Shown here piece after piece: positions 1,453-63,127 of a DNA stretch of 64,000 nt; position 1 is the first letter of the stretch; each line of letters begins with the position of its first letter. The notes under the pieces were generated by a model. It was not told the origin of the DNA. It saw nothing but the letters and a program-made list of their open reading frames with translations, and did not search any database. The stretch comes from a virus, in the IMG/VR virus record IMGVR_UViG_3300011008_000022, one strand, 5' to 3'. Made by a program: the position numbers and the translations under genes.

Positions 1453-1483
1453 CCACCGTGCCCAGCCGTTCTCGGCTGGGTCC
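1453..1483 (+). repeat. family-A hairpin, abuts stop codon
   Basis: ccaccgtgCCCAGCCGttctCGGCTGGGtcc. Confidence 0.9.
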
Positions 1484-1496
1484 TAAACAAAAGAAT

Positions 1497-2267
1497 ATGA
1501 AACAAGACAAATATTTCTTACGCTTTCAGCAGCTCTGCATTGGCATCCTGGCTCAGTCTGACAACTGCATGGAGTCACAACAGCAGTTCAAGTCTGCTCG
1601 CTCCGTTCCTGAACTGGTGACGGCATGGCAGCGATTTTGGGCGGGTGTCCTACACGAAGTACCTGAACAGGTCATCAAGGCTTTTGCTGACCTCTACCCC
1701 GTCTATCGTGATGACATTATTCGTGCCGGTGTCTATTATAACGAGGCTCCGCCTGTCGGCATCTATCCTGAAAACCCTATATCTCCCGTCTCACCCTCCG
1801 ATGCAGCCACCGTGCCCAGCGCTTCTCCGTTGGGTCCTACCACCAACGCCATGATACTCATCGGCGATGCTCCCGCCACCGTTCCCGATGATTCTCCATC
1901 GGGTGAAACAGCTTCTCCATCGGATCTCGTAATTCATGGCCGTAATCGTGTCTATGTCCTCGGCAACCTCCCCGTGACTGTCACCGACAATTCCAGCGTC
2001 CATGTCAACAGCGACCGTGCCGTAGTGACCGTATGTGGTTCTGCTCGTGCTAACATCGAACGGGGAACACTCATCGCTCGTGACCGTGCCGTAGTCAATG
2101 GCAAGGGTCTCATAACCTGCTACGACTCTACGACGATATATGTCTCTGGTGGTGTCCTGCACGATAAAGGACACCTCGATATCATCGCCTATAACGATGC
2201 GGTCATCAACAGCTTCACCAACCGTCGCATCAAACTCAACGACCAGGCAATCCTGAACATCGAATAA
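1497..2267 (+). CDS. hypothetical protein carrying two in-frame family-A hairpins
   Basis: ATG 1497 after A-rich leader; ORF-track start 1458 is a GTG inside the upstream hairpin (MPSRSRLGPK artefact); ATVPSASPLGPT and ATVPDDSPSGET are encoded by hairpins at 1807-1836 and 1876-1905. Confidence 0.7.
   Translation: MKQDKYFLRFQQLCIGILAQSDNCMESQQQFKSARSVPELVTAWQRFWAGVLHEVPEQVIKAFADLYPVYRDDIIRAGVYYNEAPPVGIYPENPISPVSPSDAATVPSASPLGPTTNAMILIGDAPATVPDDSPSGETASPSDLVIHGRNRVYVLGNLPVTVTDNSSVHVNSDRAVVTVCGSARANIERGTLIARDRAVVNGKGLITCYDSTTIYVSGGVLHDKGHLDIIAYNDAVINSFTNRRIKLNDQAILNIE
1807..1836 (+). repeat. family-A hairpin, in frame in CDS 1497..2267
   Basis: ccaccgtgCCCAGCGcttctcCGTTGGGtc (one G-T pair). 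Confidence 0.85.
1876..1905 (+). repeat. family-A hairpin, in frame in CDS 1497..2267
   Basis: ccaccgttCCCGATGattctcCATCGGGtg; a half copy (agcttctccatcgg) follows at 1910-1925. Confidence 0.85.
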
Positions 2268-2275
2268 TAGTCTCT

Positions 2276-2305
2276 CCACCGTGCCCAGTCGTTCTCGGCT
2301 GGGTC
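2276..2305 (+). repeat. family-A hairpin, intergenic
   Basis: ccaccgtgCCCAGTCGttctCGGCTGGGtc (one T-G pair). Confidence 0.9.
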
Positions 2306-2319
2306 CTAAAAGTAAAAGT

Positions 2320-4941
2320 ATGAATAGCCACATTGCCATAACAGCTCAGAAGAACGGCAAGCAGATTCCACTCAATCTGCCGGATGATTTTAGCATCGAC
2401 ATCGACGATCAAAATCCGCTCTTCAACGATAACGAAATGTTCTCATACCCCTGTAGGATGCCTATGGAGGGTAATCGTTTCTTGCTGGGCAATATCGATG
2501 ACCCGCTGAACATCGATCGCCCAGTAGGTCTCGAACATACGAAAATGCGTATCGTGGTGGATAACCAGCCGTTCCGTTCTGGTACGCTCGTCACCGCAGA
2601 GGATGAGGAGATAGACGGTGCGCTGACTATGAATATTTCGGCTTCTGACCATTCTATCGACGATCTGATTGGCGACTTGAAATGTCAGGACATCCCTCTG
2701 AAAGATAAAATCCTGATTGGCGAAAAGATTGGTGCTGTCACAGCTGCTATCAATTACCAGTATCACGTACATATCACATGGGATGGTAAGAAAGCGGACA
2801 CGGACACATGGCCGTCAGCAACGGATTCGTCTGAGGTGGTCTTCACACCACAGGCTTTGGGTTTCTCCTGCCCTGCAGAGTGTAACACCACAGGAAGTAA
2901 GGAGGAAGCGATTGTGGCTTCTGTCATCAACTATGACGATGGCAAGAAACGTAATAAGCCGTCCATCCGTCAGAGCTTTATCAATGTTAGCGAACCGTAC
3001 CCCAACGCGAAGTATTGCAATGCGCGAGTGGCTTACTATCACTATGGACTGGATGAGGAGGGCAAGAAGACCTCTAACAAAATCAATCCGCTCACGAAAA
3101 GGGGTGGACCAGAGAATAAATGGCCATACTGGGTGCTGGATGCTGACCGTCAGCAGTCGGGCATCTGCTTCTATGTCCTGTACTTCCTCGATTGTCTTTT
3201 CTCTTATCTGGGCGTGTCTTTCGATAACAGCGAACTGCTCCAGGTGGAGGATATGCGTCACCTGTGCTTCTTCACAACACACTGCAAGTACGATGAGGAA
3301 TATAAGTACCCGAACCAGGTGCCTTATTTTACCACCATCGAACAGATCAACGCCTGGCTGACATCGCGTGGCACAGGTGCTCACTTCGAGTTCCATGACG
3401 GTGGCAACCGCATGGTCAACAACGTGGACTATATCGACTCTAACGGTACTCGCCACCATGCAGAGGTGGGTAAGGATGGTGTCAACACGATTATGGTGGA
3501 GTCTATCGTCAACAGCCGCTCTGTATCGGGTAATATCATGCGCATGTATGCCAACAGCGAGAACTTCCCTGAAGAGTCGGTAAAAACGGTGCTGGATAGC
3601 CTATGGGCTTCTTTCGGTATTCGTTTTGAATATGACTACGAGAAAAAGCATGTACGTGCTTACTACGTCCGCGAGGTGTTCCGTGATACACAGGATCCTA
3701 TCGACTTCCCTGGACGGGTAATCTCCATGCACAAGATTGCTGAGAAGATTACGGGTGTACGCATGTGCTACTCGGCTGAAAGCAGCAGCAAGGAACAACA
3801 GGGTAATGTGCGCTCCGGCAAAAAGGACTATGATACGTCCTACGATTATATCGACTACCCCCAGAATGCTACCATCACGGATAAGCATTATGAAGAGATA
3901 TTCCGTACTCCTCAGCAGAATAATGCCAGTGGTAACACGAATGTCTATGTGGATAGGGCAACGGGTAACAAGTACCGTATCAAGGTGAATAGCGATGCGG
4001 AAACGGCTATGGACTTGAAGCCGGTGCTCTTTGAGGTAGGACAGTATAAGGGCGTGGAACTGGGCGACTGCTCAGAACTTAACGAGGACTTCATAGAGGA
4101 GATAAAATCGGACTTCGTGCCGATGGTCTTCAATGATGTAAACTATCAGAATGAGGTCAATTCTGCTGCTGGCTCCATGAAGTCGGATGGCTATCAGATC
4201 ATCCTGAATGCTGACCAGGAACAGCCTATCCTTGCGGCTTTCGTCGATGAGGAAATGGAACATGAGTTCCTGGAGCAACGCATCCGTCAGACATTGGCAT
4301 CTAATGTGGCTGAGTTCTATTTCGACGAGGTACTGGATGGCATGATAGAGAACTATGACCCGTCATCCTCTGATGATGGTAATAGTCCGCTGCAGACGGT
4401 CGATTGGGGACTGGCTATCGCTATCATGCGTGGTGGTGGTACGGATGCAACCATACAGACGTATGATCACAACTACGATGGCTTTGGTAACTCGAAATGG
4501 CGCACAGTGGCTGGTCTCTATGCGCTTACGTCTGACAGCCTCGATATGTGGGGCAATGAATACGACTATAACGGTGTATCTCCTGGCATCGGTGGTGGCG
4601 AACGCTTCTCATTGAAGATTCGCTCATGGGTACAGCCGGAATGGGCCAATGCTCCGCTGGTGGATGCTGACGTGGTGGATAGTCAGGGAAACATCGAGAA
4701 GAAAATCAAATCGCGTGGCCTCTTTGACACCTTCATGTCGGAATATGCGAACTTTATCCTAAAACGTCGTAAATACCGCGTCCGCATAGAGTGCTCTGCT
4801 GCTCAGGTGGCAGACGTGCCAAACCATTGGACGCGTCGATTCCGCATCAACGGCATGGTGGGCTTCATTAACAAATTGTCTTATAACGTCTCTGCAAAAG
4901 ATGGTCTTAACGGCCTCGAAGTGGAGTTCTATGTTCTATAA
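2320..4941 (+). CDS. large hypothetical virion-associated protein (873 aa)
   Basis: ATG 2320; track start 2281 is again a GTG inside a hairpin; long uninterrupted ORF; no catalytic motif recognised. Confidence 0.75.
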   Translation: MNSHIAITAQKNGKQIPLNLPDDFSIDIDDQNPLFNDNEMFSYPCRMPMEGNRFLLGNIDDPLNIDRPVGLEHTKMRIVVDNQPFRSGTLVTAEDEEIDGALTMNISASDHSIDDLIGDLKCQDIPLKDKILIGEKIGAVTAAINYQYHVHITWDGKKADTDTWPSATDSSEVVFTPQALGFSCPAECNTTGSKEEAIVASVINYDDGKKRNKPSIRQSFINVSEPYPNAKYCNARVAYYHYGLDEEGKKTSNKINPLTKRGGPENKWPYWVLDADRQQSGICFYVLYFLDCLFSYLGVSFDNSELLQVEDMRHLCFFTTHCKYDEEYKYPNQVPYFTTIEQINAWLTSRGTGAHFEFHDGGNRMVNNVDYIDSNGTRHHAEVGKDGVNTIMVESIVNSRSVSGNIMRMYANSENFPEESVKTVLDSLWASFGIRFEYDYEKKHVRAYYVREVFRDTQDPIDFPGRVISMHKIAEKITGVRMCYSAESSSKEQQGNVRSGKKDYDTSYDYIDYPQNATITDKHYEEIFRTPQQNNASGNTNVYVDRATGNKYRIKVNSDAETAMDLKPVLFEVGQYKGVELGDCSELNEDFIEEIKSDFVPMVFNDVNYQNEVNSAAGSMKSDGYQIILNADQEQPILAAFVDEEMEHEFLEQRIRQTLASNVAEFYFDEVLDGMIENYDPSSSDDGNSPLQTVDWGLAIAIMRGGGTDATIQTYDHNYDGFGNSKWRTVAGLYALTSDSLDMWGNEYDYNGVSPGIGGGERFSLKIRSWVQPEWANAPLVDADVVDSQGNIEKKIKSRGLFDTFMSEYANFILKRRKYRVRIECSAAQVADVPNHWTRRFRINGMVGFINKLSYNVSAKDGLNGLEVEFYVL

Positions 4942-4942
4942 T

Positions 4943-4972
4943 CACAGTGCCCGCTGATTCCGTCAGCGGGTC
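4943..4972 (+). repeat. family-A hairpin variant, 1 nt after the stop codon
   Basis: cacagtgCCCGCTGAttccgTCAGCGGGtc; fully compensated alternative stem. Confidence 0.85.
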
Positions 4973-4989: not shown

Positions 4990-6108
4990 ATGCCTAAAAT
5001 TGAATTGTCCCTTCCCCGCTCCTGGAACCAGTGTACGCTACCTGCGCTCCGTGCTATTGCTGCCGTGCTGACTGACTGCTCGGCACGTATCGATCGCTTC
5101 CATCCTTTTGACATGATGGAGGTAAAGGTGGGGGTATTACTACGTTTAACGAATATCGAAGTGCTGGAACCAATCAACCCGCGAGTAGCGGTCGAAGAGC
5201 AATACTATACCTGCCGCCTACGTCCCTGGACTATCGATGAAGAATATAGTCGTTGGTTCCGTATGCTGCGATACTATCGCAGCTTCTGTGCTTGGTTCCG
5301 TCGCTCTGTCCTCGGACATGATGACACTTTCTCGCTATACGTGTGGCAAATCAATTACTGGCTCACTCCTCACAAAGATCAGGCAACAGGACGCATGGTG
5401 CCTGGTATGCTCGACTGGATGAATAGCGATAGTAAGAGCTTCCTTCAGCGCTTCCCGTTCCCGTCTGTCCGTCGTCGCTCTGGTAAGTGCTCTCGTAAGG
5501 TGACATTCAAGGGACCTAACACGTTTATGGATGGCTTCTCATGGCGACGCTACCGATTCGCTCAGGACTATATGCAGATGTATATCGAACAGCAAAACCA
5601 TTTGCTCGAACTGCAACAGTCTGGCAAGGTGTCGGCAAAGGACTTGCTGAAAGCAACAAAGGCCATGGATCTGTCTAAGGCGCTTTTCCTGGCTACTGTC
5701 TTCAATCGTAAGATAACATTTGTCAACGAGGAAACAGGACAGACTATCACCGATTATCATTACCAGTTTAATCAGCATTCAGATAACAGTCCTTTCTTCC
5801 GTAATTTCGACGATAAGGATTGGCAACTGGTGTGCCTATGGTGGGCGGGCATGATGCACTATTTGCATCAGACTTATCCCAAGGTGTTCAAGGTACAGAA
5901 GGTGAAAGGTAACAAGAAACCTGTCAACCCGCTCATGTTATATGCGCGTACAACGGCAACACTGGAGAAGTACCTCCACTCTACTGCAACGGACATAGAA
6001 AGGGAACCTTACTCCACCATCCTTCAGCAACTCGAAGACATCACACGTCGTAACGAGGAGATAGAAGCTGCAAACCGCAAAATGAGGGCACAATCCCGCC
6101 GTAAGTAG
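4990..6108 (+). CDS. hypothetical protein (372 aa)
   Basis: ATG 4990 after A-rich leader; stop 6106-6108 directly followed by a tandem pair of family-A hairpins. Confidence 0.75.
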   Translation: MPKIELSLPRSWNQCTLPALRAIAAVLTDCSARIDRFHPFDMMEVKVGVLLRLTNIEVLEPINPRVAVEEQYYTCRLRPWTIDEEYSRWFRMLRYYRSFCAWFRRSVLGHDDTFSLYVWQINYWLTPHKDQATGRMVPGMLDWMNSDSKSFLQRFPFPSVRRRSGKCSRKVTFKGPNTFMDGFSWRRYRFAQDYMQMYIEQQNHLLELQQSGKVSAKDLLKATKAMDLSKALFLATVFNRKITFVNEETGQTITDYHYQFNQHSDNSPFFRNFDDKDWQLVCLWWAGMMHYLHQTYPKVFKVQKVKGNKKPVNPLMLYARTTATLEKYLHSTATDIEREPYSTILQQLEDITRRNEEIEAANRKMRAQSRRK

Positions 6109-6175
6109 CCACCGTGCCCAGCGCTTTTTCGCTGGGTTTTCTTCGTCACCGTGCCCAGCCGTTCTCGGCTGGGTC
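6109..6175 (+). repeat. tandem pair of family-A hairpins, first abuts stop codon
   Basis: ccaccgtgCCCAGCGctttttCGCTGGGtt ... tcaccgtgCCCAGCCGttctCGGCTGGGtc. Confidence 0.9.
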
Positions 6176-6222: not shown

Positions 6223-6235
6223 CAATATAAAAATA

Positions 6236-6263
6236 GTTCTGTATGTCGCTATGTCTTAGCGAC
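6236..6263 (+). repeat. family-B hairpin in the 5' leader of 6284 gene
   Basis: gttctgtatGTCGCTAtgtctTAGCGAC. Confidence 0.85.
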
Positions 6264-6283
6264 TTTAAAAAGGAAATAAGATT

Positions 6284-8119
6284 ATGGCAAAAAAGACTTC
6301 TGCTCCCGTCACCCGCGTAAAGGCCAGCAACTTCATAAAAAAGGCTGCTGACCTGCATCGCCGTAACTACTCGGTACTCCTGCCAGGCGACCGCTCTTAC
6401 TATAATTTGGATGGCCCCAGCAGCGATATTTCTTGGGGCGACTTCATCGGCTCACAGCTTCGTGCCGGTGCAACCGAAAATGGTAAGTCTCAGCGTAAGT
6501 CTATACCTACGCTCTATTTCTCGTCAGGAAACGAAAGCCAACAGGGAGCTGAGAAGATTGGTACGCCTAACTTGGGATGGATAGAATGGGGCTATGGCAA
6601 CAACCTGCCTAACATCGTGGCATTGCTCACACACATGCTGCCATATACGGCTGCCGGTCTTAAATTCAACACGGATCTCTGTGCTGGACTCGGACCTCAG
6701 CCGATGTACGACTGTACGCAGTATGTGGGTGGTAACATCACACAGAAACTCATCCGCTATAAGGATGCAGGACAATGGCTGCGCGGACGTATCATCGACC
6801 TGCAGACACAGCTGCTGAACCTCGAACAGAAAAACACCACTCCCGATGATTCATCATCGGGCGAAGGCATGGGTGCTGCTGTTGGCTCTGTAACAGGACG
6901 TGGCGCGAAAAAGTCTGAGGTGTACGATGCACTTGTGGATTCTATCAACGAACAGATAAAGGAATTACAAGAGGCACATAAGGTATGGAAGACTACAGAT
7001 GAGGAGGTACAGAAGTTCCTCGATAATAATAATATCGCTCAGACATGGCTTTCGCTGGTGCTCGATCAGGAACTGTTTGGTATCTCGTTCCCAGAACTGT
7101 TGCTGAACCAGCAAGACCTCGACGAGAATGGAAACCCTGTCAAAACGAAGACTTGGACTCCTCGCGTGACGGGTATCGCCCACCGTTCATGCCATACGAC
7201 CCGCATGGAGCGTATGGATGAAATGGGTAAGATTAACTTCGTGTACTGCTCTACAAGATGGCTTGATAAATACTTCATCGAACAGGGTGGAGAGAATAAC
7301 GCGCCTATCAATGCTATACCTGCCCTCCATGTGCCCTCTCCTCTTGCTTCACTGGAGGAGAAGGTACGTGAGGCTCGCCAGAAAAATGTATCTGTCAACA
7401 ACAGACCGACGCACTTTGTTTTGCCGACGGTCTATCCTACCGCTGGTCGCCCATATTACCCGACTCCTGCCTGGTACTCTATCTTTGGTGGTGATATCTA
7501 CGAATACATCACAACGATATTCTCAGACCGCCTCTCTCGTAAGCGTAACAGCAATGTCATCGGACGTGTCATCTATCTGCATAACGATTACATGCAGCAG
7601 TTGTTTGTGGCCAAAAAAGCACAGGCTGATGCTAACAAACAGGCTGAGATACGCGACAAACTCTATACGCAGATCAACCAGTGGCTCGCCAATCGCAACA
7701 ATGCCGGACAGTCATTGCTGGCTTTCACATTCATGGGCACGGATGGTAAGGAGCATAAGAGCTTCGAGATTGTAGAGATCGAAAGCAACAATAAGGATGT
7801 GGTGGCAGCCAACGAGAAAGAGACGGCTGAACTGTCATCAGTGGTATTCATGGCTCTGGGTCTTGATGGTCGTCTGCTGGGTTCTTCGCCGCTGTCTCTC
7901 GTAGGTAGCAACGGTGGTACTGACATCCGCGAACGCTTCCTGCTTCGCTTGATCCTGAAATCACCGCAAATCAACATCATGCTTAAACCGCTGGAAGTGC
8001 TCTCTCGCTTCAACAAGTGGGACCGCCACCTGGTATGGCAGGTGCAAAAGCAGGCAATGACAACACTTGACCGCTCTAAATCGGGCGTGACAACACAATC
8101 TGACGACGAAGGTAAATAG
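6284..8119 (+). CDS. hypothetical virion-block protein (611 aa)
   Basis: Preceded by -7 box 6215-6222 and family-B leader hairpin 6236-6263; long ORF; function not recognisable by eye. Confidence 0.75.
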   Translation: MAKKTSAPVTRVKASNFIKKAADLHRRNYSVLLPGDRSYYNLDGPSSDISWGDFIGSQLRAGATENGKSQRKSIPTLYFSSGNESQQGAEKIGTPNLGWIEWGYGNNLPNIVALLTHMLPYTAAGLKFNTDLCAGLGPQPMYDCTQYVGGNITQKLIRYKDAGQWLRGRIIDLQTQLLNLEQKNTTPDDSSSGEGMGAAVGSVTGRGAKKSEVYDALVDSINEQIKELQEAHKVWKTTDEEVQKFLDNNNIAQTWLSLVLDQELFGISFPELLLNQQDLDENGNPVKTKTWTPRVTGIAHRSCHTTRMERMDEMGKINFVYCSTRWLDKYFIEQGGENNAPINAIPALHVPSPLASLEEKVREARQKNVSVNNRPTHFVLPTVYPTAGRPYYPTPAWYSIFGGDIYEYITTIFSDRLSRKRNSNVIGRVIYLHNDYMQQLFVAKKAQADANKQAEIRDKLYTQINQWLANRNNAGQSLLAFTFMGTDGKEHKSFEIVEIESNNKDVVAANEKETAELSSVVFMALGLDGRLLGSSPLSLVGSNGGTDIRERFLLRLILKSPQINIMLKPLEVLSRFNKWDRHLVWQVQKQAMTTLDRSKSGVTTQSDDEGK

Positions 8120-8146
8120 TTCTGTATGTCGCTATGTCATAGCGAC
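8119..8146 (+). repeat. family-B hairpin between 6284 and 8167 genes
   Basis: gttctgtatGTCGCTATGtCATAGCGAC. Confidence 0.9.
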
Positions 8147-8166
8147 CTCAAAATAAAAGAAAAGAT

Positions 8167-9204: not shown

Positions 9205-9233
9205 CCACCAATCCCAGCCGTTCTCGGCTGGAC
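9205..9233 (+). repeat. family-A hairpin, abuts stop codon
   Basis: ccaccaatCCCAGCCGttctCGGCTGGac. Confidence 0.85.
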
Positions 9234-9266: not shown

Positions 9267-9776
9267 ATGAATAGTATCGTATCATTCTTCCAGAGCTTCT
9301 TCAGCTCAGTACCGCGACAGATTGCTGTCGGACTGGGAATTGTTTGGGCATGGCTGGAGCCAACACTCCCCTATGCCGCTATGTGTTTGTTTGCTGTTGT
9401 CATCGATTGCCTCACGGCATGGCGATTAAATCGGCGTGTGAAGGCTAAATATCCGAACGCAGGAGCCGATGGCAAACTGAAATCCTCACACATGTCGAAG
9501 ATGATATCAGACCTGGCTATCGTTTGGCTCTGCATCCTACTGGCAGACGGTGTGGATGATAATTTGCTCGAACACCTTGGAGGTCTCCACCTCGGCCAGT
9601 ATGTAGCAGCTATCTTTGTCCTCTGCACGGCTGTCTCGATACTCGAAAATGAGTCTTCATGCAATGGCGCTGCATGGGCAAGAGCCGTCCAGAAGATTGT
9701 CACCTCGAAAGTCGCTCGCCATATCGACATCGACGAGAAAGAATTGGAGGAGATCATACACGAGAAAAAAGAATAG
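9267..9776 (+). CDS. holin-like membrane protein (Phage_holin_4_1-like)
   Basis: 169 aa with several hydrophobic helices; VVIDCLTAW...KLKSSHMSK...SILENESSCNG resembles the D..TG / K..SS / SILEN pattern of the holin_4_1 family. Confidence 0.55.
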   Translation: MNSIVSFFQSFFSSVPRQIAVGLGIVWAWLEPTLPYAAMCLFAVVIDCLTAWRLNRRVKAKYPNAGADGKLKSSHMSKMISDLAIVWLCILLADGVDDNLLEHLGGLHLGQYVAAIFVLCTAVSILENESSCNGAAWARAVQKIVTSKVARHIDIDEKELEEIIHEKKE

Positions 9777-9806
9777 TCACCGTGCCCAGCCGCTCTCGGC
9801 TGGGTC
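9777..9806 (+). repeat. family-A hairpin, abuts stop codon
   Basis: tcaccgtgCCCAGCCGctctCGGCTGGGtc. Confidence 0.9.
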
Positions 9807-10388: not shown

Positions 10389-11066
10389 ATGGAAAAATTT
10401 AACTATCAACAACCGTGCTGCATCGAGAGCACACTGCCACAGCTGCTGAAGAAATACGACTGGCTGCCATTCCAGACAAGTGGCGATGTGACAGTAGAGA
10501 AAATCCTGAAGGCTGTAAGCTACCTCGCTGGCAACAACCTCGACATCACTATCTGCCTGCCGGCTATCGACGTAACAATCCTGCGCCTATTCGCTTGGTA
10601 CCATAGACGTGGATGGCTGAAAGCGTTTACCGTCTTAACGGCAACAGACCAAAGCGAACTGATCCGTAACGAATTGCCAAAGGAACTGCCACTAACCATC
10701 GTGGATAGTGCCGACATCCCCGAAAACTATGGTATGTTGGTCATCAAAGGTGAACTGAGCAATGTCATCGTCAATGGTCCGATCTTCTCAGTCGTCACAC
10801 CAGGCATCTGTTCCTATACGGCATACTATGGCAAAGACCCAGAGCGTATCGCTCAACTGACCGACACCATCAATGCCCGCATCCGCGTCGCTGATGCCAA
10901 AAAGAAAAGGGCTGCAAGGAAAACAACCCCAAAGAAAAAAGGCACCACCACTCCCGCCTCCGAAGCTCCTGCTCCCGCTGATGGTTCCACTGTGCTCGGC
11001 GATTCTGTCGTCGAGGAAAAAGACTCCACCTCTCCCGCTGCTTCTCCAGCGGGCACTGATGAATAA
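10389..11066 (+). CDS. hypothetical protein with K/T/P-rich C-terminus
   Basis: 225 aa; 4-nt gap from previous gene; C-terminal low-complexity tail contains two in-frame hairpins (10987-11056). Confidence 0.7.
   Translation: MEKFNYQQPCCIESTLPQLLKKYDWLPFQTSGDVTVEKILKAVSYLAGNNLDITICLPAIDVTILRLFAWYHRRGWLKAFTVLTATDQSELIRNELPKELPLTIVDSADIPENYGMLVIKGELSNVIVNGPIFSVVTPGICSYTAYYGKDPERIAQLTDTINARIRVADAKKKRAARKTTPKKKGTTTPASEAPAPADGSTVLGDSVVEEKDSTSPAASPAGTDE
10987..11056 (+). repeat. two family-A-type hairpins in frame in CDS 10389..11066
   Basis: ccactgtgCTCGGCGAttctgTCGTCGAG and ccacctctCCCGCTGcttctcCAGCGGGcac. Confidence 0.75.
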
Positions 11067-11109
11067 CCATACCGCTGCACCGCAACGGTAAATTCGCGTT
11101 ACTCCTGCA

Positions 11110-11186
11110 CCCAGCCGCCCGTTATCGGCTGGGTGTTTTCTTTTCCAGCGCTTCCGCCACTGTGCCCAGCCGTTCTCGGCTGGGTT
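11110..11186 (+). repeat. two family-A hairpins between convergent genes
   Basis: CCCAGCCGcccgttatCGGCTGGGtgttttctttt and ccactgtgCCCAGCCGttctCGGCTGGGtt. Confidence 0.85.
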
Positions 11187-11778: not shown

Positions 11779-11905
11779 GTTTCGTCTATTGTTCGGCGAT
11801 TGCATCGCCGCTTTTCGTTCTGTGCCCAGCGCTTTTCCGCTGGTCCTGTATGTCGCTATGTCATAGCGACCTTAGCCATCGTGCCCAGCCGTTCTCGGCT
11901 GGGTC
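11779..11905 (+). repeat. composite C-A-B-A hairpin cluster between two minus-strand genes, all in + orientation
   Basis: gtttcgtctattgttcGGCGATtgcATCGCC; tgtgCCCAGCGcttttcCGCTGGtcc; ctgtatGTCGCTATGtCATAGCGAC; ccatcgtgCCCAGCCGttctCGGCTGGGtc. Confidence 0.9.
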
Positions 11906-13276: not shown

Positions 13277-13284
13277 TTATTACT

Positions 13285-13313
13285 CCCCGCCGATTTCGGT
13301 GGGGTTTCTTTTT
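13285..13313 (+). terminator. intrinsic terminator (family-A-like stem plus T-run)
   Basis: CCCCGCCGAttTCGGTGGGGtttcttttt. Confidence 0.8.
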
Positions 13314-50046: not shown

Positions 50047-50048
50047 GT

Positions 50049-50729: not shown

Positions 50730-50730
50730 C

Positions 50731-54580: not shown

Positions 54581-54594
54581 TATCATTCTTCCCC

Positions 54595-54622
54595 GTTCCG
54601 TCTGTCGCTATGCCATAGCGAC
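54595..54622 (+). repeat. family-B hairpin after the C5-methyltransferase gene
   Basis: gttccgtctGTCGCTATGcCATAGCGAC. Confidence 0.9.
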
Positions 54623-54627
54623 ATTCT

Positions 54628-54695
54628 CCACTACTCCCAGCCGTTCTCGGCTGGGTTTTTCTTTTCCTCCCAGCGCTTCTCCGCTGGGTCTTTTT
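54628..54695 (+). terminator. two family-A hairpins, each with a T-run, after the C5-methyltransferase gene
   Basis: ccactactCCCAGCCGttctCGGCTGGGttttt and CCCAGCGcttctcCGCTGGGtcttttt. Confidence 0.8.
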
Positions 54696-58200: not shown

Positions 58201-61071
58201 AAAGCCTATGTCGATGACATGAGGGCTGCCGGAAAGTCTGTCGAAGATATCAATAAAGACCTGGCAAAGAAACTGGGTGTCGAAGGCAAGGTGGCTCGTG
58301 ATGCTTATAACCGCCGTTCTGATAAGACTTTGCGTACTACTTTCTTCGATCAAGAGAGTTATCGGGCACAGGCGCAATATGATATGGATGGTGGTTTTGC
58401 TGCCGCCAGAAATACGACCCGCGCCCTCACCCAAGCCGAACAGATGTTGTATGCCGCTACTCGTTATGCTACGCAGGCGTACTCCGCATCCAACGCCATG
58501 AACCGCGTCAATAAGAAGTGGAAGCCGTTTGAGGAGGACCTATCGACGGTCACTGATGAGACTCCTGGCACCCTCGACAACGATGCACCCGATAAGGAAG
58601 CCGAGAAGCGCCGCAAGGCTGAGGAAGCGGCTCGACGCAAGGCGCTCCGTGCGGAAATGAAGGAGGAACAGGCTAAGGCTCAGGCTATCGTCGATAATGT
58701 CAAGAACTACTACGAGCGTCAGATTGCTGCCATTACGGAAATGGCTACAAAGACGGGCATGGATTCTGAACTCCAGAAGAAACTCGTCGATGGTATGACC
58801 GTCCGCATGAATAATGCACTGGCTAATGTCCGTCAGGCTATCGCTGGCACTGAGAACGATTGGGCTGACTTCCGCCAGTCGATGATAAATGACCTCTACG
58901 AACCGCTGTCTGAGGATGGTACTAACCAGTCCACACAGTTGCTCGATAACATCATCCATAATGATATCGACAAACTGAAGGAAATGATTACGGTTCTCTC
59001 GAAAGAACTGGGACAGAATGGCTCTGTGCTTCTCGATCAGATATGGCGTAAGGCTACTGAGAATGAACTGAAAAACGCTAACCAACAGAACAAGGCATAC
59101 CAGGAGCGTCAGAGGGTGCTTCTGGAAAAGAACTATACGGGCAAGGTAAACCTCGACTACGAGAACCAGATGGAACAGTTTGGTGTCGCCGAACTGACCT
59201 CTGAACAGATTGCTCAGATGATGGGGTGGTCGCAGAAGGGTAACAACGAGGCTATCCAACAGTTTCTCGATGACCGTACCGAACAGTGGCAAAAGGCGTT
59301 TGCATCGGCCCGTAAGAATGTCGTTGACCTGCTCTCTGTCGATGCCAACAGTGAGGATGCACCTGATAAGGTGCTCACTATCCTCTTCGGTAAGGATTAC
59401 AAGTCTTATCTCGCCGGCACGGGCCTCTCGTCACTGCTCGATATGTCTGCCGACCAGTTCAAGGTGTTCTACCAGAAACTCATCGAATACTCTGATGCCT
59501 ATACTGATGCTCAGAAGAAAGCCTACGACGAGGCAAAACGTCGGGCGGATTTCATCTTTAATAACAATCCTACCATTCAGAGTATCGACCAGTCAACACA
59601 ACAGCTGTCAACCATCAACAGCGACCAGCAACGCTTCGAGTCTGATAAGAACATCGGACAGCAGATGGGTATGTCCTGGAACATCGATTCTGACCCCGAA
59701 ATTCTGCGCTATCGCCTGCTGGCTGAACGTGCCCGTCTCTACTATGAGGATATGGCGCGTCTGCGTGAACAGGATAAGATCTCTGAACAGCAGCTGACGG
59801 ATGCAAAGCGTCAGATGATGGAGGCTCAGTCTAACATGGCCGACCAGGTGGCTCGTAAGTTCCATGAGCGGGTGTCTCTGCTCCAGAACTTCTCCGAACC
59901 GCTGAACACCTTTGCCGAAGGGGTAGGGGAGTCGCTGGGTAACATGATCTACGACACCGAACAGTCGGATGTCAAGATGAAAGACTTGCTGAAAGACATG
60001 CTGAAGTCGTATGTGAAGATGTCGCTGCAACTTATTGCCCAGGACCTCACACGCCGTGTCACTAAGCAACTCTACTACCGTCAGGAGGAAATGGATGAGA
60101 CAATGCACCAGCAGACCATGCTGCAAATACAGCAGCTCTACCAGTCGCTGATGTTGACAGCTCAGACTACTGGCGATGCAGCGCGTCTTACACAACACGC
60201 CACATCGAATGCTACCGAACTGTCAGCAGAGGCGGGTGCTACCACTGGTAAGGTGGGCCTCGGTATTGCCGGTGGTGCAGCTAAGATCATCGGCACCCTG
60301 GGCTTCTGGGGTATTCCGCTGATTGGTGTGATTACGGCACTCTTGATGGGACTGCTCTCTTGGGCTATCGGATTGGCTTTCGGTGGCGATGACAGCGGTG
60401 CCAGTGCATCGGATGCTACGCCTAACGTCAAACTCGCCACAGGTATGTTGACGTATGACAGCGGTAACGTGCAGAGTGTGGGCAACGGTTCTCCCGTTGC
60501 TTCTCCCTCCGGCTATGCGCCCTCCGCCTCTCCTGGTGGTAGTGGTGCGCCCGCTGGTGCTGCCGGCGGGGATAGAACGCCTGTCCTCGGTTCTGATGGC
60601 TATGTCTATCAGGCTCGCCAGGTGCCACAACTGCAGACGGGTCTCGTCACGTCGCCTATCGCCACCATGGTCAACGGACAACCGTCACTGGTTGGCGAAC
60701 GTGGCCCTGAAATGGTGATTGGACGCGAGACAACAGCAGCAATGCAGATGGCACGTCCCGACCTCCTCGCGGCTATCGTGAAGTTTGATAAGAACTACTC
60801 CAATGGCCATGCCTATCGCACCTATGACGAAGGCAACCTCTCCGACTTCGCCACCGTGCCCGATGGATCTCCATCGGGTGAAGGCACTCTCACCAAAGAG
60901 GATATCGACGGACTCCGTTCTACGCTCTCCGAGTTTACAGCGGTCATGCTGGCTATCAAGCGCAACGGCCTCCATGTCAACAAGTACGGACGTGGTGGCA
61001 TCGCTCAGGAGTCGCAGGATGGCGCTAATTTCATGCGTCGTAACTCCGGCGACCGTCTCTGGAAAGGTTAG
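55282..61071 (+). CDS. tail tape measure protein
   Basis: 1929 aa; long coiled-coil regions; TP901-type core (ADLAYQGGKMGFG...SINQLSATSTASGTHIVDFAKRL...LGSAADALGQ); central hydrophobic segments; in-frame hairpin 60851-60880. Confidence 0.85.
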   Translation: MADKQIYIKISADSAQPVAAVKAMRNELSRLQKAYDAINTSTATGAQRAQKLQKEMADLRALIKQQEADMNKVSKVITNLSNASLSQLNQALRQVKKEISRTSESSPKLEELRQKYKAITDQIKVMNGEMINIKKHMGELSTQTDSWLQRAINQQKQLVESTQKTSSAYQGQVNILHQLQNEQARRAVSTISDGGASADALRTARANLVSYRDQLGKGGILPASGNVATEIERINAELKKCDDQLDAIAGKEKQIELTTDQLQQKADNIILDPKKFSPKEIKAAIDEIQKKLNNLGTNDTARKKLNEQMKQLKNILDGVDHELVNIGDLLKPGNLRKAPLETLQKAAKQLENEMAKLNRDQQQYIDKQKQLAAIRGEIERTTGAINRQGSAWKTTFRNISMYFGVFQLFSIAQQKLQGMLQSNLAYSDQLADIRKVTGLATKEVNELSDSLATLNTRSTVQDLADLAYQGGKMGFGKYGVEGMSAFVRAADQVKVALSDDLGDDSLLQISKLVDTMGLIPKLGVERSMLAVGSSINQLSATSTASGTHIVDFAKRLTGLSRITGITTPELLALGSAADALGQAPEVAATAFGKLFTSLQTNHNLIEQQLNMEKGTINNLFSQGKAMEAILQIMEKMREKGNMNALGNIWKDLGSEGQRLIGVMATMSKNVDTVRAHVEESNVAFEEATSLTNEYALKQDTANAILEKGNNLWAKAFTNPEGVDMVKQMAQAWYDLSKSMTSNEASMWIMKNLLGLIAAELKILLALLPAILTGLLFKGASVAIIGLASSIGLMGKNAVLATLQTKGLVAAWHALNTAQKMNVIGLCISLLTGLAIAIASVIKKGNEATTWMQGFNSTMSDFNREFAIADDRLKRFKKAIDDAATGSRQRAAAIRNFNKEYGQYLSKMLTEKSTADDIAKAYKEVVKQLRAKIALQMKEKDITSQVAPRVGWSADRLTEYDNVAGGSAYNGTWLKAYVDDMRAAGKSVEDINKDLAKKLGVEGKVARDAYNRRSDKTLRTTFFDQESYRAQAQYDMDGGFAAARNTTRALTQAEQMLYAATRYATQAYSASNAMNRVNKKWKPFEEDLSTVTDETPGTLDNDAPDKEAEKRRKAEEAARRKALRAEMKEEQAKAQAIVDNVKNYYERQIAAITEMATKTGMDSELQKKLVDGMTVRMNNALANVRQAIAGTENDWADFRQSMINDLYEPLSEDGTNQSTQLLDNIIHNDIDKLKEMITVLSKELGQNGSVLLDQIWRKATENELKNANQQNKAYQERQRVLLEKNYTGKVNLDYENQMEQFGVAELTSEQIAQMMGWSQKGNNEAIQQFLDDRTEQWQKAFASARKNVVDLLSVDANSEDAPDKVLTILFGKDYKSYLAGTGLSSLLDMSADQFKVFYQKLIEYSDAYTDAQKKAYDEAKRRADFIFNNNPTIQSIDQSTQQLSTINSDQQRFESDKNIGQQMGMSWNIDSDPEILRYRLLAERARLYYEDMARLREQDKISEQQLTDAKRQMMEAQSNMADQVARKFHERVSLLQNFSEPLNTFAEGVGESLGNMIYDTEQSDVKMKDLLKDMLKSYVKMSLQLIAQDLTRRVTKQLYYRQEEMDETMHQQTMLQIQQLYQSLMLTAQTTGDAARLTQHATSNATELSAEAGATTGKVGLGIAGGAAKIIGTLGFWGIPLIGVITALLMGLLSWAIGLAFGGDDSGASASDATPNVKLATGMLTYDSGNVQSVGNGSPVASPSGYAPSASPGGSGAPAGAAGGDRTPVLGSDGYVYQARQVPQLQTGLVTSPIATMVNGQPSLVGERGPEMVIGRETTAAMQMARPDLLAAIVKFDKNYSNGHAYRTYDEGNLSDFATVPDGSPSGEGTLTKEDIDGLRSTLSEFTAVMLAIKRNGLHVNKYGRGGIAQESQDGANFMRRNSGDRLWKG
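60851..60880 (+). repeat. family-A hairpin, in frame in the tape-measure gene
   Basis: ccaccgtgCCCGATGGatctCCATCGGGtg (peptide ATVPDGSPSG). Confidence 0.9.
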
Positions 61072-61101
61072 TCACCGTGCCCAGCAGTTTTCGGCTGGGT
61101 T
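61072..61101 (+). repeat. family-A hairpin, abuts the tape-measure stop codon
   Basis: tcaccgtgCCCAGCAGttttCGGCTGGGtt. Confidence 0.85.
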
Positions 61102-61408: not shown

Positions 61409-62625
61409 TCACGGGCATGGGCATCTGGTCCTGCATCGGTCAGTCCGTTCAGGAGGTGGCTCAGTCTCTCCGTCTTGGAAAGAGTGGCATCGGCATCGAT
61501 CCTGAGCGTACCGCCTACGGCTACCAATCACCCCTTACCGGCATCGTGCCGCGTCCCGACATCAAGGCTCAGGGATTGCGACGCTCTCAGCGCATCACAC
61601 TCTCCGAACCTGGTGAATATGGCTACATGGCCATGAAAGAGGCGCTGACGATGGCTCCTGTCAGCGACCTCTATCGCTGTGGCCTTATCGTCAGCAATGA
61701 CAGCACTGCTGGCGCTCTCGCTGAGACAGAGGCTATCATGGCGGAATACCATGACAGCCGACGACTGGGTGCCGGCATGGTGTTCCGCACCCTCAATAGC
61801 TCGGTATCTATGTCGCTGGCTTCCATCTTTGGCATCGGTGGCCTCACACTCTCCGTCTCTGCTGCCTGTGCCGGTGGTGGCCACGCTATCGGTCTCGCTC
61901 ATTCGCTCATTCAGTCCGGCCAACTGGACTGCTGCATTGTGGTAGGCGCTCAGGAGGTAGGACTACATGCCTATACATCCTTTGATGCACTCGGTCTCTT
62001 CAGCAAGCGTACCGACAACCCAGCAGCTGCCTCACGTCCGTTTGACACAGAGCGTGACGGCCTCGTGCCCTCTGGTGGCGCTGCCTGCGTTATCCTCGAA
62101 ACAGCCGGACATGCCGCTATGGGAAACAGAAAACCCTTGGCCATGGTCGATGGCTATGGCTTCTCCACCAGTCCCGATCTCGTTTCTCCCTCTTCCGATG
62201 CTATTTACCAGTCCATGACCGCCGCCCTATCTGCCGCCACTGTGCCCAGCGGTTCTCCGCTGGGTCCTGGTATCTCCGCTATCATGGCTCACGCTACCTC
62301 CACGCCCGATGGCGACCGTGCCGAGGCAGAAGCTATCCACCGCTTCTGTCTTGATAATGGTCTATCTCATCCTTTCGTCATCAGCACCAAGGCGCTCACA
62401 GGTCACGAGTGCTGGATGTCGGGTGTCTCTCAGATCGTCTATGCACTCATACAGATGCAAGGTGGTTTCATAGCACCAAACATCAACCTCCGCACCATCG
62501 ACCCAGCAGCAGCTACGCTACGCATTCCAACAGCGCCAACCGTCACCACGCTAACCACCGTTCTCTGCAACGCCTTCGGTTTCGGTGGCACCAACAGTAG
62601 CCTGGTAATCTCTCGCGCTGGCTAA
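61393..62625 (+). CDS. beta-ketoacyl-ACP synthase (KAS I/II, FabF/FabB-like)
   Basis: VITGMGIWS, active-site SAACAGGGHAIG (Cys), HATSTPDGDRAE (His), TGHECWMSG (His), NAFGFGGTNSSLVI; overlaps the ACP gene by 16 nt; in-frame hairpin 62237-62266. Confidence 0.85.
   Translation: MRRTVITGMGIWSCIGQSVQEVAQSLRLGKSGIGIDPERTAYGYQSPLTGIVPRPDIKAQGLRRSQRITLSEPGEYGYMAMKEALTMAPVSDLYRCGLIVSNDSTAGALAETEAIMAEYHDSRRLGAGMVFRTLNSSVSMSLASIFGIGGLTLSVSAACAGGGHAIGLAHSLIQSGQLDCCIVVGAQEVGLHAYTSFDALGLFSKRTDNPAAASRPFDTERDGLVPSGGAACVILETAGHAAMGNRKPLAMVDGYGFSTSPDLVSPSSDAIYQSMTAALSAATVPSGSPLGPGISAIMAHATSTPDGDRAEAEAIHRFCLDNGLSHPFVISTKALTGHECWMSGVSQIVYALIQMQGGFIAPNINLRTIDPAAATLRIPTAPTVTTLTTVLCNAFGFGGTNSSLVISRAG
62237..62266 (+). 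repeat. family-A hairpin, in frame in the ketoacyl synthase gene
   Basis: ccactgtgCCCAGCGGttctCCGCTGGGtc (peptide ATVPSGSPLG). Confidence 0.9.
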
Positions 62626-62655
62626 TCACCGTGCCCAGCGCCTCTCCGCTGGGCT
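62626..62655 (+). repeat. family-A hairpin, abuts the KAS stop codon
   Basis: tcaccgtgCCCAGCGcctctcCGCTGGGct. Confidence 0.9.
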
Positions 62656-62773
62656 TCGCTAACTATTCTTGTACTACCGCTCTGTCGGTAATGTCTTCAT
62701 TCGGTGGCTGTGCTGTGAAGCACGGCCACCGCCTTTCTATCATCCTCTCCATCGCTCGTCACTAATCAAAAAG

Positions 62774-62793
62774 CCCAGCCGTTATCGGCTGGG
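62774..62793 (+). repeat. family-A hairpin in a non-coding region
   Basis: CCCAGCCGttatCGGCTGGG. Confidence 0.85.
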
Positions 62794-63061
62794 TCTCTAT
62801 CTGTCTTCGTCTATTGTGTGGGACTGTATCGCCACCTCCGCGCTCATCGGTAATATCCAGCGCCGCAAGGCGCTGTGTCAGCGTCAGTGTCATTGGCTGG
62901 GGCACCTACGGTGGTATCATTCACAGCGGCAACGCCGCTGTCCTCTATATAGCGCAAATAGGCGCATATTACCCCAATTTAATACATGGTGCAAAGGTAA
63001 TCATTTTCCGCGACATCACCAAACTTTTTCGCCACTATTTTCTAATTATTTTCCCGCTCCC

Positions 63062-63089
63062 GTTCTGCATGTCGCTATGTCATAGCGAC
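63062..63089 (+). repeat. family-B hairpin in a non-coding region
   Basis: gttctgcatGTCGCTATGtCATAGCGAC. Confidence 0.9.
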
Positions 63090-63102
63090 CAGGACTCCTC
63101 TT

Positions 63103-63127
63103 CCACTCCCAGCCGTTCTTGGCTGGG
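63103..63127 (+). repeat. family-A hairpin in a non-coding region
   Basis: ccactCCCAGCCGttctTGGCTGGG. Confidence 0.8.

Follow-up and report, generated by a model that had tools for sequence, protein, structure and literature searches.

Results

Two classes of tagged hairpin in a single orientation

This work deals with a 64,000-nt stretch of viral DNA (IMG/VR record IMGVR_UViG_3300011008_000022), here called the window and read along its + strand, and with a family of ~65 short tagged hairpins that recurs in it about once per kb. The window has ~50% GC and encodes a tape-measure protein, a holin, an NAD ligase, a beta clamp, a dUTPase and several DNA methylases, together with a P4/D5-type primase-helicase (46378-50046; 1222 aa), a ParA-like protein and a weak Rep-like protein; a PrimPol+PriCT_2 protein (L005:9649-10641) is encoded ~200 nt to its right. 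Genes on the + strand occupy 1-11.1 kb, 12.4-32.4 kb and 44.8-64 kb, and those on the − strand 11.2-12.2 kb and 32.5-44.6 kb, with one + gene (42757-43656) as the exception in the latter block. Overall, 80% of the coding is on the + strand, and − coding makes up 21% of the window. Parts of two IMG/VR contigs (101.9 kb and 62.6 kb) match the window at 94-98% identity, megablast found no match of its DNA among GenBank phages, and its protein matches are remote only. Judging from the two contigs, the whole genome is ~102 kb long and probably circular or circularly permuted.

The repeated unit is ~30 nt long and consists of a single-stranded 5′ tag, a GC-rich stem of 8-9 bp, a loop of 3-4 nt and a short tail, and it comes in two classes. 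Class 1 reads CCACCGTG-GCCCAGCCG-TTCT-CGGCTGGGT; its tag is followed by CCC (GTGC, not GTGG or GTAG), its stems begin with CCC/GGG and its tail is TCC. About a quarter of its copies have ACT or other triplets in place of GTG. Class 2 reads YYCGTTCTGTAT-GTCGCTAT-GTC-ATAGCGAC or GGCGAT-NNN-ATCGCC, with 3-nt loops, and its copies share a 12-nt 5′ flank (YYCGTTCTGTAT; tag consensus CGTTCTGTAT) in front of the stems GTCGCTAT/ATAGCGAC, GTGGCTAT/ATAGCCAC, GCTGCGAT/ATCGCAGC or GGCGAT/ATCGCC. Both classes carry a C-Y-G-T-R motif at their 5′ foot. Since one class takes the place of the other at orthologous intergenic sites of related phages (2283 in L019, L018 and L001; 9784 in L004), the two are equivalent units. 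Forty class 1 copies align readily and their stems covary, with 91% of the cells paired and 57 double-change cells, which none of 500 shuffles equalled and which collapses in slid controls; with class 2 included, 91-92% of the stem cells are paired, again with covariation. The folding energy of the hairpins as DNA is −11 kcal/mol.

All these units point the same way. A covariance model of class 1 (R1, filters off) has 42 matches on the + strand (E<=0.016), whilst on the − strand it only picks up the palindromic stems of those copies a second time, in reverse complement (<=13 bits), leaving no independent inverted copy (two-sided binomial p ~5e-13 for 42:0); the model was trained on + copies, and an inverted copy would score equally on the − strand. 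Model R2 likewise finds 21 class 2 copies on the + strand and no independent one on the − strand. An orientation-blind scan (T[TC]CT loop, stem of at least 5 bp) gave 19 hairpins on the + strand, 16 of them obvious family members, and 7 on the − strand, none of them family-like, and the flank CCACCRTG occurs 13 times on the + and twice on the − strand (expected total 4.05). Of the copies in − gene context (~15), six or seven belong to class 1 and nine to class 2, and all are + oriented (p ~3e-5 under random orientation); the nine of class 2 are part of − transcription units and usually precede the start codon of a − gene by 17-26 nt.

Between genes the layout is stereotyped (stop codon, 8 nt of tag, hairpin, ~16 A-rich nt, ATG), and the stop codon falls at the fixed alignment columns 5-7 in 12-13 copies. 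Spacing along the window is clustered, with a coefficient of variation (CV) of 1.35, pairs 30-60 nt apart and gaps of up to 6 kb, and a regular Okazaki-like spacing is thereby rejected. At least six T within the next 10 nt follow nine of the 42 class 1 copies, all at operon ends, and two class 1 copies have a T-run on the opposite strand. By their sequence the nine do look like ordinary terminators, and it is because the T-tract is limited to them that intrinsic termination was rejected as the general identity of the family. A known RNA family was rejected as well, since none of the families of Rfam 15 reaches its gathering threshold anywhere in the window.

An earlier, sequence-only reading of this DNA had counted about 44 copies of what is here class 1. 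That number agrees with the full hairpin list (~42-44 family members, 1460-63127) and with R1, and the stem variants and the four copies with G-T pairs (1814, 2283, 13285 and 43277) are as it described them; the single orientation stood up to the scan of both window strands for inverted copies. The copies at 11826, 11883, 40859, 40900, 42177 and 44157 do stand in the minus-strand context that it described; the one at 43277 lies inside the + gene 42757-43656 and not in a − gene. T-rich tails, estimated at about six, number nine; the view that most copies are unlike ordinary terminators is right for the majority without a T-tract, and the nine at operon ends do look like such terminators. Its inventory covered class 1 and missed class 2, the in-frame coding copies and the correlation with strand composition.

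Class 1 copies and relatives (coordinates, strand, description, R1 score in bits)
1452..1482, +, intergenic, tag begins at stop codon of gene 19-1452, 49.4
1806..1836, +, in frame in + gene 1497-2267 (ATVPSASPLG), internal G-T, 45.2
1876..1904, +, in frame in + gene 1497-2267 (ATVPDDSPSG), 34.9
2275..2305, +, intergenic, class-2-like hairpin instead in L019/L018/L001, 41.5
4941..4972, +, variant stem GCCCGCTGA, intergenic after stop of 2320-4941, 36.5
6108..6138, +, T-rich tail (terminator-like), after stop of 4990-6108, 25.6
6145..6175, +, intergenic, 48.5
6834..6862, +, in frame in + gene 6284-8119 (NTTPDDSSSG), 28.1
9206..9232, +, intergenic, absent in L004 (empty site ATATAA/AAACATG, the slash marking the junction), doubled in L006, 40.5
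9776..9806, +, intergenic, class-2-like hairpin at this site in L004, 46.7
11026..11054, +, in frame at C-terminus of + gene 10389-11066 (STSPAASPAG), stem type switched between GCTG and GATG in the 99% identical L011, 33.0
11099..11137, +, class 1 relative with 8-nt loop, T-rich tail, convergent gene junction, 18.2
11156..11186, +, T-rich tail, convergent junction, abuts stop of − gene 11187-11753, 48.1
11818..11844, +, short stem, between two − genes, anti-oriented to transcription, 31.8
11875..11905, +, between two − genes, anti-oriented (the − genes around 11826 and 11883 are real by codon scores), 46.6
12610..12638, +, in frame in + helix-turn-helix (HTH) gene 12402-12728 (TTTPDASPSG), absent in L004/L012, 32.2
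13277..13305, +, variant CCCCGCCG/CGGTGGGG, T-tract, end of gene 12749-13276, 28.1
14676..14711, +, class 1 relative (AGCCCCACCGA stem), T-tract, operon end before iterons, 12.3
20791..20821, +, directly after stop of 19960-20790, 45.1
23100..23131, +, variant CCCCACTGG, after stop of 21588-23096, followed by class 2 copy, 29.0
24738..24765, +, variant with two G-T, after stop of 24396-24740, followed by class 2 copy, 23.8
27048..27078, +, in frame in C-terminal tail of NAD ligase gene 25808-27442, 23.1
27271..27298, +, variant TCGGTGG, in frame in ligase C-terminal tail, 28.1
29497..29526, +, weak class 1 relative inside + gene 29388-29732 (APSGSPAAP), 15.8
31681..31709, +, T-tract, end of 30192-31661, 39.2
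32391..32421, +, perfect palindrome GCCCAGCCG..CGGCTGGGC without tag at the convergent junction of + and − modules, bidirectional terminator-like, 29.4 (+) and 13.1 (−)
40858..40888, +, degenerate (T-T mismatch), canonical tag CCACCGTG at 40859, antisense in − gene 40608-41672, identified by sequence
40892..40920, +, antisense in − gene 40608-41672 (reads RPSGDTLGVV), 39.2
42169..42199, +, between − genes 41723-42160 and 42221-42547, anti-oriented, 44.7
43269..43301, +, in frame in + gene 42757-43656 (ATTVPDASPSG), 36.4
44149..44177, +, antisense in − HTH gene 43836-44621 (TQPKTAGSGG), 40.0
45687..45715, +, after stop of 45298-45687, 32.0
50047..50077, +, after stop of primase-helicase gene, site empty in L055/L066, 40.4
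50729..50759, +, after stop of 50130-50729, 46.3
52534..52564, +, variant CTCGATGG, in frame in HNH gene 52363-52779, two compensatory switches in L008, 40.3
54628..54656, +, T-tract, end of C5-methylase gene, 45.7
54661..54689, +, T-tract, tandem to copy 54628..54656, 28.5
60472..60503, +, variant GGGCAACGG, in frame in tape-measure gene 55282-61071, 28.0
60849..60881, +, in frame in tape-measure gene (FATVPDGSPSG), 38.3
61071..61101, +, after stop of tape-measure gene, 40.4
62236..62266, +, in-frame insertion in FabB-like ketoacyl synthase 61393-62625, 49.1
62625..62655, +, after stop TAA of synthase gene, absent there in L048, 42.4
62765..62795, +, stem without tag, loop TTAT, T-run on − strand, probable − strand terminator, loop flipped in relative L048 (AGAA; TTCT on − strand), 38.6
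63100..63128, +, closing G-T, non-coding region, 38.4

Class 2 copies (coordinates, strand, description, R2 score in bits)
5255..5284, +, GCTGCGAT act ATCGCAGC, inside + gene 4990-6108, 34.6
6235..6264, +, 20 nt upstream of ATG 6284, 36.1
8118..8147, +, directly after stop TAG 8119, 20 nt before ATG 8167, 43.4
11785..11810, +, GGCGAT tgc ATCGCC, between − genes, anti-oriented, 38.7
11842..11871, +, between − genes, anti-oriented, 42.5
12782..12811, +, class 2 relative, inside + gene 12749-13276, 26.1
14720..14745, +, after class 1 copy 14684, before iterons, 32.6
23143..23168, +, after class 1 copy 23108, upstream of Bacteroidetes-type promoter, 37.2
24777..24802, +, after class 1 copy 24746, 33.7
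27468..27497, +, after ligase gene, 39.3
30133..30162, +, 30 nt upstream of ATG 30192, 31.3
31800..31829, +, near start of + open reading frame (ORF) 31776-32393, 40.3
32436..32461, +, at stop of − gene 32464-33078, convergent junction, 43.2
37321..37350, +, between − genes, 26 nt upstream of − start 37304, anti-oriented, 45.7
38178..38207, +, 22 nt upstream of start of − methylase gene 37516-38166, anti-oriented, 37.5
38396..38425, +, between − genes, anti-oriented, 47.6
39001..39026, +, T-G wobble, antisense inside − gene 38548-39522 (similar to phosphoadenosine phosphosulfate (PAPS) reductase), 29.8
39844..39869, +, between − genes, anti-oriented, 41.0
41685..41710, +, 22 nt upstream of ATG 41672 of − gene, anti-oriented, 40.9
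54593..54623, +, before class 1 copies 54636 and 54669, 42.8
63061..63090, +, before class 1 copy 63108, 41.8

The region of the tag-less hairpin at 62765..62795 holds a probable − strand non-coding transcript of ~210 nt (62773-63000), whose −7 box (CAAAGGTA on the + strand, 62992-62999) points left and whose end would be the hairpin (62794-62773) followed by the − strand T-run. The arrangement is conserved in L048.

Orientation in other phages and strand composition

In close relatives of the phage, 134 of 134 matches fall on one strand per contig (19 loci), and in 83 of the 86 loci with matches these are confined to a single strand; the three exceptions are tag-less palindromic terminators at convergent junctions or the flipped loop (window 62773). 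Gene direction matters little. Among 167 unique copies of unambiguous context in viral loci 15.6% are in antisense gene context, against 23% of the coding length, and once metagenome loci are added, 34 out of 239 unique copies run against the gene at their site, so that the elements are almost indifferent to gene strand. The same tag and hairpin occur in ~7 protein-unrelated contig groups: one phage (L051) has them antisense inside a 2016-aa tape-measure ORF, another (L049) carries three antisense copies inside a polyvalent-protein ORF of at least 2930 aa, and in a second lineage (L041, L074 and L093) the copies of + and − gene blocks share one genomic strand. The orientation rule thus extends to at least two independent phage lineages, and probably to ~7. 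With the one-strand matches of R1 and R2 and the antisense copies of the window, these lineages bear out the earlier claim that orientation ignores the direction of transcription and follows a genome-wide polarity.

An 8.2-kb contig of a Prevotella metagenome-assembled genome (MAG), L030, looks like a small phage or mobile-element fragment and encodes a DnaG-type zinc-ribbon primase. Two class 1 copies stand on it, both antisense to every gene that it carries, one of them in the Gly/Pro/Gln-rich tail of a protein ending in DDDLPF, which by eye resembles single-stranded DNA-binding protein (SSB) and has only a weak DUF3127 Pfam match.

Strand composition shows the same polarity. In + strand terms, GC skew at 4-fold sites is −0.41 in + genes and −0.28 in − genes, and synonymous GC skew does not change sign over the 64 kb; AT skew, unlike GC skew, follows the gene strand, and the + strand is pyrimidine-rich instead of having the usual keto/amino (deamination) pattern. 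The top strand of the hairpin is always the C-rich strand. Elsewhere, the top strand of the hairpins has a negative GC skew in 14 out of 16 independent metagenome loci, and with hairpins oriented + it is −0.21, −0.11 and −0.05 in the antisense-gene loci L049, L051 and L030. As the skew is negative with hairpins on the + strand in nearly every viral locus, their orientation is tied to a genome-wide strand asymmetry, one that is probably replicative and of the kind that one-directional replication leaves behind.

The imperfections of the stems are asymmetric too. At the seven core stem positions the non-Watson-Crick pairs, read on the top strand, are G-T in 41 cases and A-C in 12, an excess that opposes the mutational bias implied by the skew and therefore reflects selection. 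Split by gene context, the ratio is 35:7 in sense and 9:6 in antisense copies, which by an estimate from the counts, with no formal test, do not differ significantly. Most simply read, sense copies are kept up as mRNA hairpins, in which G-U is allowed, and antisense copies have no clear strand preference; a need for top-strand folding at the DNA level is possible. The G-T pairs pointed out in the earlier reading are indeed present in the copies named for them, but the bias is strong only in sense copies, and may therefore stem from selection on the mRNA rather than from a role in DNA. A cruciform or a protein site in double-stranded DNA was rejected, because neither would yield the asymmetry between G-T and A-C.

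Insertion behaviour and turnover

More than 15 copies lie in frame within genes. Sense copies read (A/T)T(V/T)P(D/S)xSP(S/L)G and antisense ones (R/E)PSG(D/E)xLG(T/V)V, and all the translated copies fall in disordered linkers rich in Pro, Ser and Gly. In the FabB-like synthase, alignment with solved FabB structures of the PDB places a 27-nt, 9-aa insert (TVPSGSPLG) exactly at the hairpin. Changes in one arm are matched in the opposite arm even though both residues are altered thereby (D..S, S..L, A..A), which points to selection or correction on the nucleic acid and not on the peptide; a peptide-level repeat was rejected on the same ground.

Comparison with related phages, which the sequence-only reading had proposed as a check on presence and absence, did reveal empty, doubled and class-swapped sites. 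Empty sites directly follow a stop codon (TAA) at 9214, 50055 and 62633, and tandem duplications are seen as well; stem types switch by paired substitutions between genomes that are 98-99% identical. Orthologous sites are bimodal, being either 93-100% identical (with flanks 75-90% identical) or replaced or absent, and half of the sites differ between relatives. Clusters are direct tandems, and no inverted copy exists in the window.

The unrelated phage L041 has direct tandem doublets and triplets of class 1, with periods of 36-42 nt, in intergenic positions (1937-2065, 5430-5546 and 8080-8160).

Copies in cellular genomes

The exact 20-mer core was found in 185,579 species genomes as 17 single-copy stretches, six of them in Prevotella/Bacteroidaceae, and in metagenomes as 33 stretches only; the survey of hosts covered this exact core. 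Within 8-kb host flanks no extra copies were found, except for a tandem triple (L029) and the second copy of L030. A few identical copies stand between ordinary host genes (GH88/GH28 hydrolase, M13 peptidase) and are co-oriented with them. A high-copy host repetitive extragenic palindromic (REP) sequence was rejected on the strength of these numbers, and the possibility that the element is a common host REP, raised earlier, comes down to single sites in few Prevotella/Bacteroidaceae MAGs. Since the cellular copies of the genome-collection scan are only in such MAGs, the host is probably Prevotella-like, i.e., one of the rumen or gut Prevotella-type bacteria. Promoters of the window fit the Bacteroidetes −7 box, TAnnTTTG. 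Among the hairpin-bearing phages, an all-against-all BLASTP of the sampled, partial loci showed no common enzyme family.

Other features of the phage

About six 21-bp iterons (CCGCCATGTCGAACGAAGTAC) followed by 44-bp repeats lie at 14752-15114. With the ParA-like gene (28522-29385) and a weak Rep3-like gene (30192-31661) they suggest a plasmid-type origin, and the phage may be a phage-plasmid. No PDB homologue of the primase-helicase was found. At 61145-62625 the phage encodes an acyl carrier protein and the FabB-like beta-ketoacyl-ACP synthase (E=1e-64 to PDB FabB), an unusual auxiliary metabolic pair for a phage. At least five DNA methyltransferase genes (DUF4942-type, two N6/N4, C5 and Dam-like) are accompanied by the PAPS-reductase-like gene, which has a DndC-like fold (the set is at 21588-23096, 37516-38166, 38548-39522 and 52964-54580 of the window, L005:13863-14540 and L096:2167-2619), and together they suggest heavy DNA modification. 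Just right of the window lie a Tad2-like anti-Thoeris gene (L005:12999-13460), ThyX and a radical SAM gene.

An 8-bp unit (TTCATCAA / TTCATAAA) forms tandem arrays of 3-6 in the leaders of many + genes (12723, 19543, 21138, 23737, 24355, 25359, 27514, 28401 and 61103). The arrays are all on the + strand, with none in the − modules, and may be bound by a regulator or serve as a signal in translation.

A classic diversity-generating retroelement (DGR) of the same phage group lies ~10-12 kb left of window position 1 (L009:9949-12272), in the order target gene, variable repeat (VR), ~360 nt (avd-sized), template repeat (TR) and reverse transcriptase (448 aa). TR and VR are 126 nt long and 85% identical, and every mismatch falls at a TR adenine. 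A class 1 hairpin stands ~80 nt 3′ of the VR and may be the target-site hairpin that some DGRs require. The DGR reverse transcriptase was dismissed as a source of the hairpins at large, there being no evident way in which it would explain 65 of them.

Discussion

The kind of element described here, a tagged palindromic repeat of the sort known as REP or RPE (Rickettsia palindromic element), is already known. REPs consist of a tag, a stem of 8-9 bp, a loop of 4-5 nt and a tail, and are found just 3′ of ORFs, to which the tag supplies the stop, with in-frame copies inside genes (PMC3733652). Like the GTAG- and CGTC-type REPs and like RPE-4 and RPE-6 of Rickettsia (PMC3733652, PMC6006769), the phage units are 20-40 nt long and made up of a stem of 8-9 bp, a tail and, at one end only, an unpaired tag; they lie no further than ~20 nt from ORF 3′ ends, may provide the stop codon, occur in frame and form several subfamilies per genome. 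On the other hand, their carriers are phages and not chromosomes, their consensus tags (CCACCGTG / YYCGTTCTGTAT) are neither GT[AG]G nor CGTC, their stems start with G-C and not A-T, their copies are single or in direct tandem, the inverted dimers typical of REPs (BIME/REPIN) never being seen, and their orientation is 100% uniform per genome. The canonical definition asks for GT[AG]G 0-2 nt 5′ of the hairpin foot (PMC6006769), which neither class has; for a fully paired GC-rich stem no shorter than 7 bp that closes a loop of 2-5 nt, which both have (8-9 bp; loops of 4 and 3 nt); for a cognate tnpA_REP (Y1 HUH) gene in the same genome, usually flanked by REPs, of which none was found among ~115 phage proteins; and for frequent inverted dimers, which the window lacks. 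CGTC-type REPs (terminal CGTC/TGTC/CCTC, A-T stem start, CCA tail; PMC3733652) are likewise without a dedicated transposase and share the placement just 3′ of ORFs and the in-frame intragenic copies, and the phage tag core CGT(G/T/-)C resembles CGTC, some copies reading CCGTCCC (45695; L041). The phage stems, however, start with CCC/GGG and the tail is TCC. What appears to be new is the carriage by a phage at about one copy per kb, the two interchangeable classes, and a single orientation that has no exception, is independent of transcription, is tied to composition and comes without inverted dimers or transposase; a limited literature search found no description of phage carriage, of the two classes or of the single orientation.

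From these observations we infer a single-strand, replication-coupled step in the spread of the units and a role in RNA. The units would multiply within and between the genomes of Prevotella-type phages as small insertion elements, with one particular DNA strand providing the single-stranded intermediate by which new copies are made or inserted. The choice of strand would be tied to one-directional replication of the phage, in the way that Y1/HUH enzymes (IS200/IS605, RAYT-REP, where RAYT stands for REP-associated tyrosine transposase) use the lagging-strand template, with the enzyme coming from the host or being an unrecognised phage protein, and orientation would thereby be fixed to the replicon and not to the genes. 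After insertion, sense copies would be retained as mRNA hairpins that protect 3′ ends, insulate cistrons or cause pausing, and copies with a T-tract as full terminators; such retention would explain the strong conservation and the tolerance of G-U but not of A-C. We regard this account of REP-like insertion elements, coupled to replication through one strand and then kept as mRNA hairpins or terminators, as an even bet. Of the three options offered by the sequence-only reading, a REP/RPE-like element with strand bias fits best, given the in-frame insertions, the presence and absence of copies, the tandem duplications and the spread across unrelated phages, whilst a hairpin functioning in replication or packaging is possible; the search for the RAYT/HUH gene that it proposed came up empty in ~115 phage proteins.

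The insertion account has a precedent in Y1 enzymes, which act on single-stranded DNA of the lagging-strand template and have REP-associated subclasses in Bacteroidetes (PMC6006769). In IS200/IS605 and RAYT systems, as here, a hairpin with an adjacent short motif is the recognised unit and exposure of one strand at the fork biases orientation (PMC6006769), whereas no transposase gene, pair of left and right ends or target tetranucleotide was seen in the phage, and the sign of composition is opposite to that of a lagging-strand template. Several points weigh against the account. No Y1_Tnp, other HUH or transposase domain has a Pfam match in the ~115 proteins, which cover the window and most of the remaining ~102-kb genome, and in the exact-core scan the element is rare in hosts, so that nothing points to a host REP system at work. 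The consensus tag is neither GT[AG]G nor CGTC, though its core resembles the latter. By the usual rule the leading strand is G-rich and the C-rich strand is the leading-strand template; the sign of the skew then marks the C-rich top strand as leading-strand template and not as the lagging-strand template used by Y1 enzymes, although the gene majority on the + strand suggests a replication direction opposite to that given by the skew rule. The compensatory switches in the stems could result from quasi-palindrome correction or gene conversion instead of selection. In addition, the insertion events were not observed directly, the polarity of gain versus loss having been deduced.

An unlikely alternative is that the tag and hairpin are single-strand initiation (ssi) signals, i.e., sequence-specific lagging-strand initiation sites read, on the strand exposed in one-directional or rolling-circle replication, by the phage PrimPol/PriCT-2 primase, of the archaeo-eukaryotic primase (AEP) type with a helix-bundle domain, working with the primase-helicase of helicase superfamily 3 (SF3), and spreading as mobile 30-nt units even into coding sequence. 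A primer would be laid on the conserved tag beside GTG, giving dozens of Okazaki start sites on one strand only. There are precedents: the RepB' primase of RSF1010, likewise of the AEP type with a helix-bundle domain, primes only on the 40-nt ssiA and ssiB, in each of which a 5′ tag of 6 nt is followed by a hairpin (nt 7-27), with a GTG (PMC8567376), and the pRN1 primase depends on 5′-GTG-3′, its 8-nt primer being synthesised on the nucleotides 5′ of that triplet (PMC8076596). The phage unit resembles them in its 5′ single-stranded tag, its ~21-nt hairpin and its GTG, with a conserved CCACC 5′ of the GTG at the hairpin foot, and the phage has both the PrimPol+PriCT_2 gene ~200 nt right of the window and the P4/D5-type primase-helicase at 46378-50046. 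Such signals would also account for strict strand specificity independent of genes, for a tag kept even in antisense copies within genes, for two classes interchangeable at one site and for the polar composition of the genome. RSF1010, however, has one site per strand at its origin, as against ~65 per 64 kb on one strand here, and GTG lies 5′ of the hairpin in the phage element and 3′ in ssiA. Also against such signals are the clustered spacing (CV 1.35), the half of sites that differ between relatives, by which single copies are dispensable, the quarter or so of class 1 copies without GTG, and the identical elements that hosts have amid genes of ordinary kinds (GH88/GH28, M13 peptidase). Antisense copies have a weak G-T bias, a C-rich top strand is not what a lagging-strand template usually looks like, and copies in frame would still need a mechanism of insertion.

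It is more doubtful still that the hairpins are purely RNA elements of + transcripts, such as terminators, RNase processing sites or 3′ stabilisers, with the copies of the − modules serving read-through or antisense transcription from the + strand. The share of coding on that strand (80%), the stereotyped layout of stop, 8 nt, hairpin, ~16 A-rich nt and ATG, the nine T-tract copies at operon ends, the tolerance of G-U in sense copies, the co-orientation of host copies with their flanking genes and the one clear − strand terminator, whose loop is flipped to a − strand TTCT in a relative, all speak for such a role. Yet no inverted copy serves any − gene, though 21% of the window is − coding, and antisense copies (~15 in the window, 34 of 239 unique copies overall) occur even inside giant ORFs of unrelated phages; ORFs contain more than 12 of the sense copies, at which termination would do harm, most copies lack a T-tract, and orientation follows strand composition instead of gene direction. 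Equally improbable is that the hairpins are recombination linkers, like the promoter-early stem-loops (PeSLs) of T4-type phages or lambdoid linkers, at which co-infecting phages swap cassettes of genes or domains and of which only collinear copies give viable recombinants, so that one orientation is kept. Copies do sit at gene and domain boundaries, the element is common to otherwise unrelated phages, and 39% of the breakpoints of homology between relatives lie within 40 nt of a hairpin, against 8.8% of random positions. With a proper baseline, however, the enrichment is small (a hairpin at 51% of intergenic breakpoints vs 39% of gene boundaries), and hairpin polymorphism itself breaks alignments; the lone 27-nt insert of FabB is not a cassette boundary, thirty nucleotides are short for homologous exchange, and the tie to strand composition is left unexplained. 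T4-type PeSLs and the RNase III sites of T7 are repeated intergenic stem-loops in one orientation that flank small gene cassettes, co-oriented with the transcription of a one-directional gene block, whereas the phage copies are also antisense to genes and inside ORFs.

REP palindromes have been known for forty years, and their mode of spread and the control of their orientation are still argued. The hairpins of this phage are unusual in that their exceptionless orientation is decoupled from transcription, in that insertions into proteins and gains and losses between near-identical genomes are visible, and in that no transposase was found on the replicon; in a small, fast-evolving replicon with two such families, the link between single-strand exposure, replication direction and repeat propagation is directly testable. 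For the annotation of Bacteroidota phages it matters that a single repeat family, and not protein motifs or terminators, underlies dozens of ‘linker’ peptides (e.g., TVPSGSPLG) as well as many hairpins between genes. If the hairpins were priming signals after all, this would be a new way for a double-stranded DNA phage to organise lagging-strand synthesis, its Okazaki starts, or the complementary-strand synthesis of rolling-circle replication, being hard-wired into the genome.

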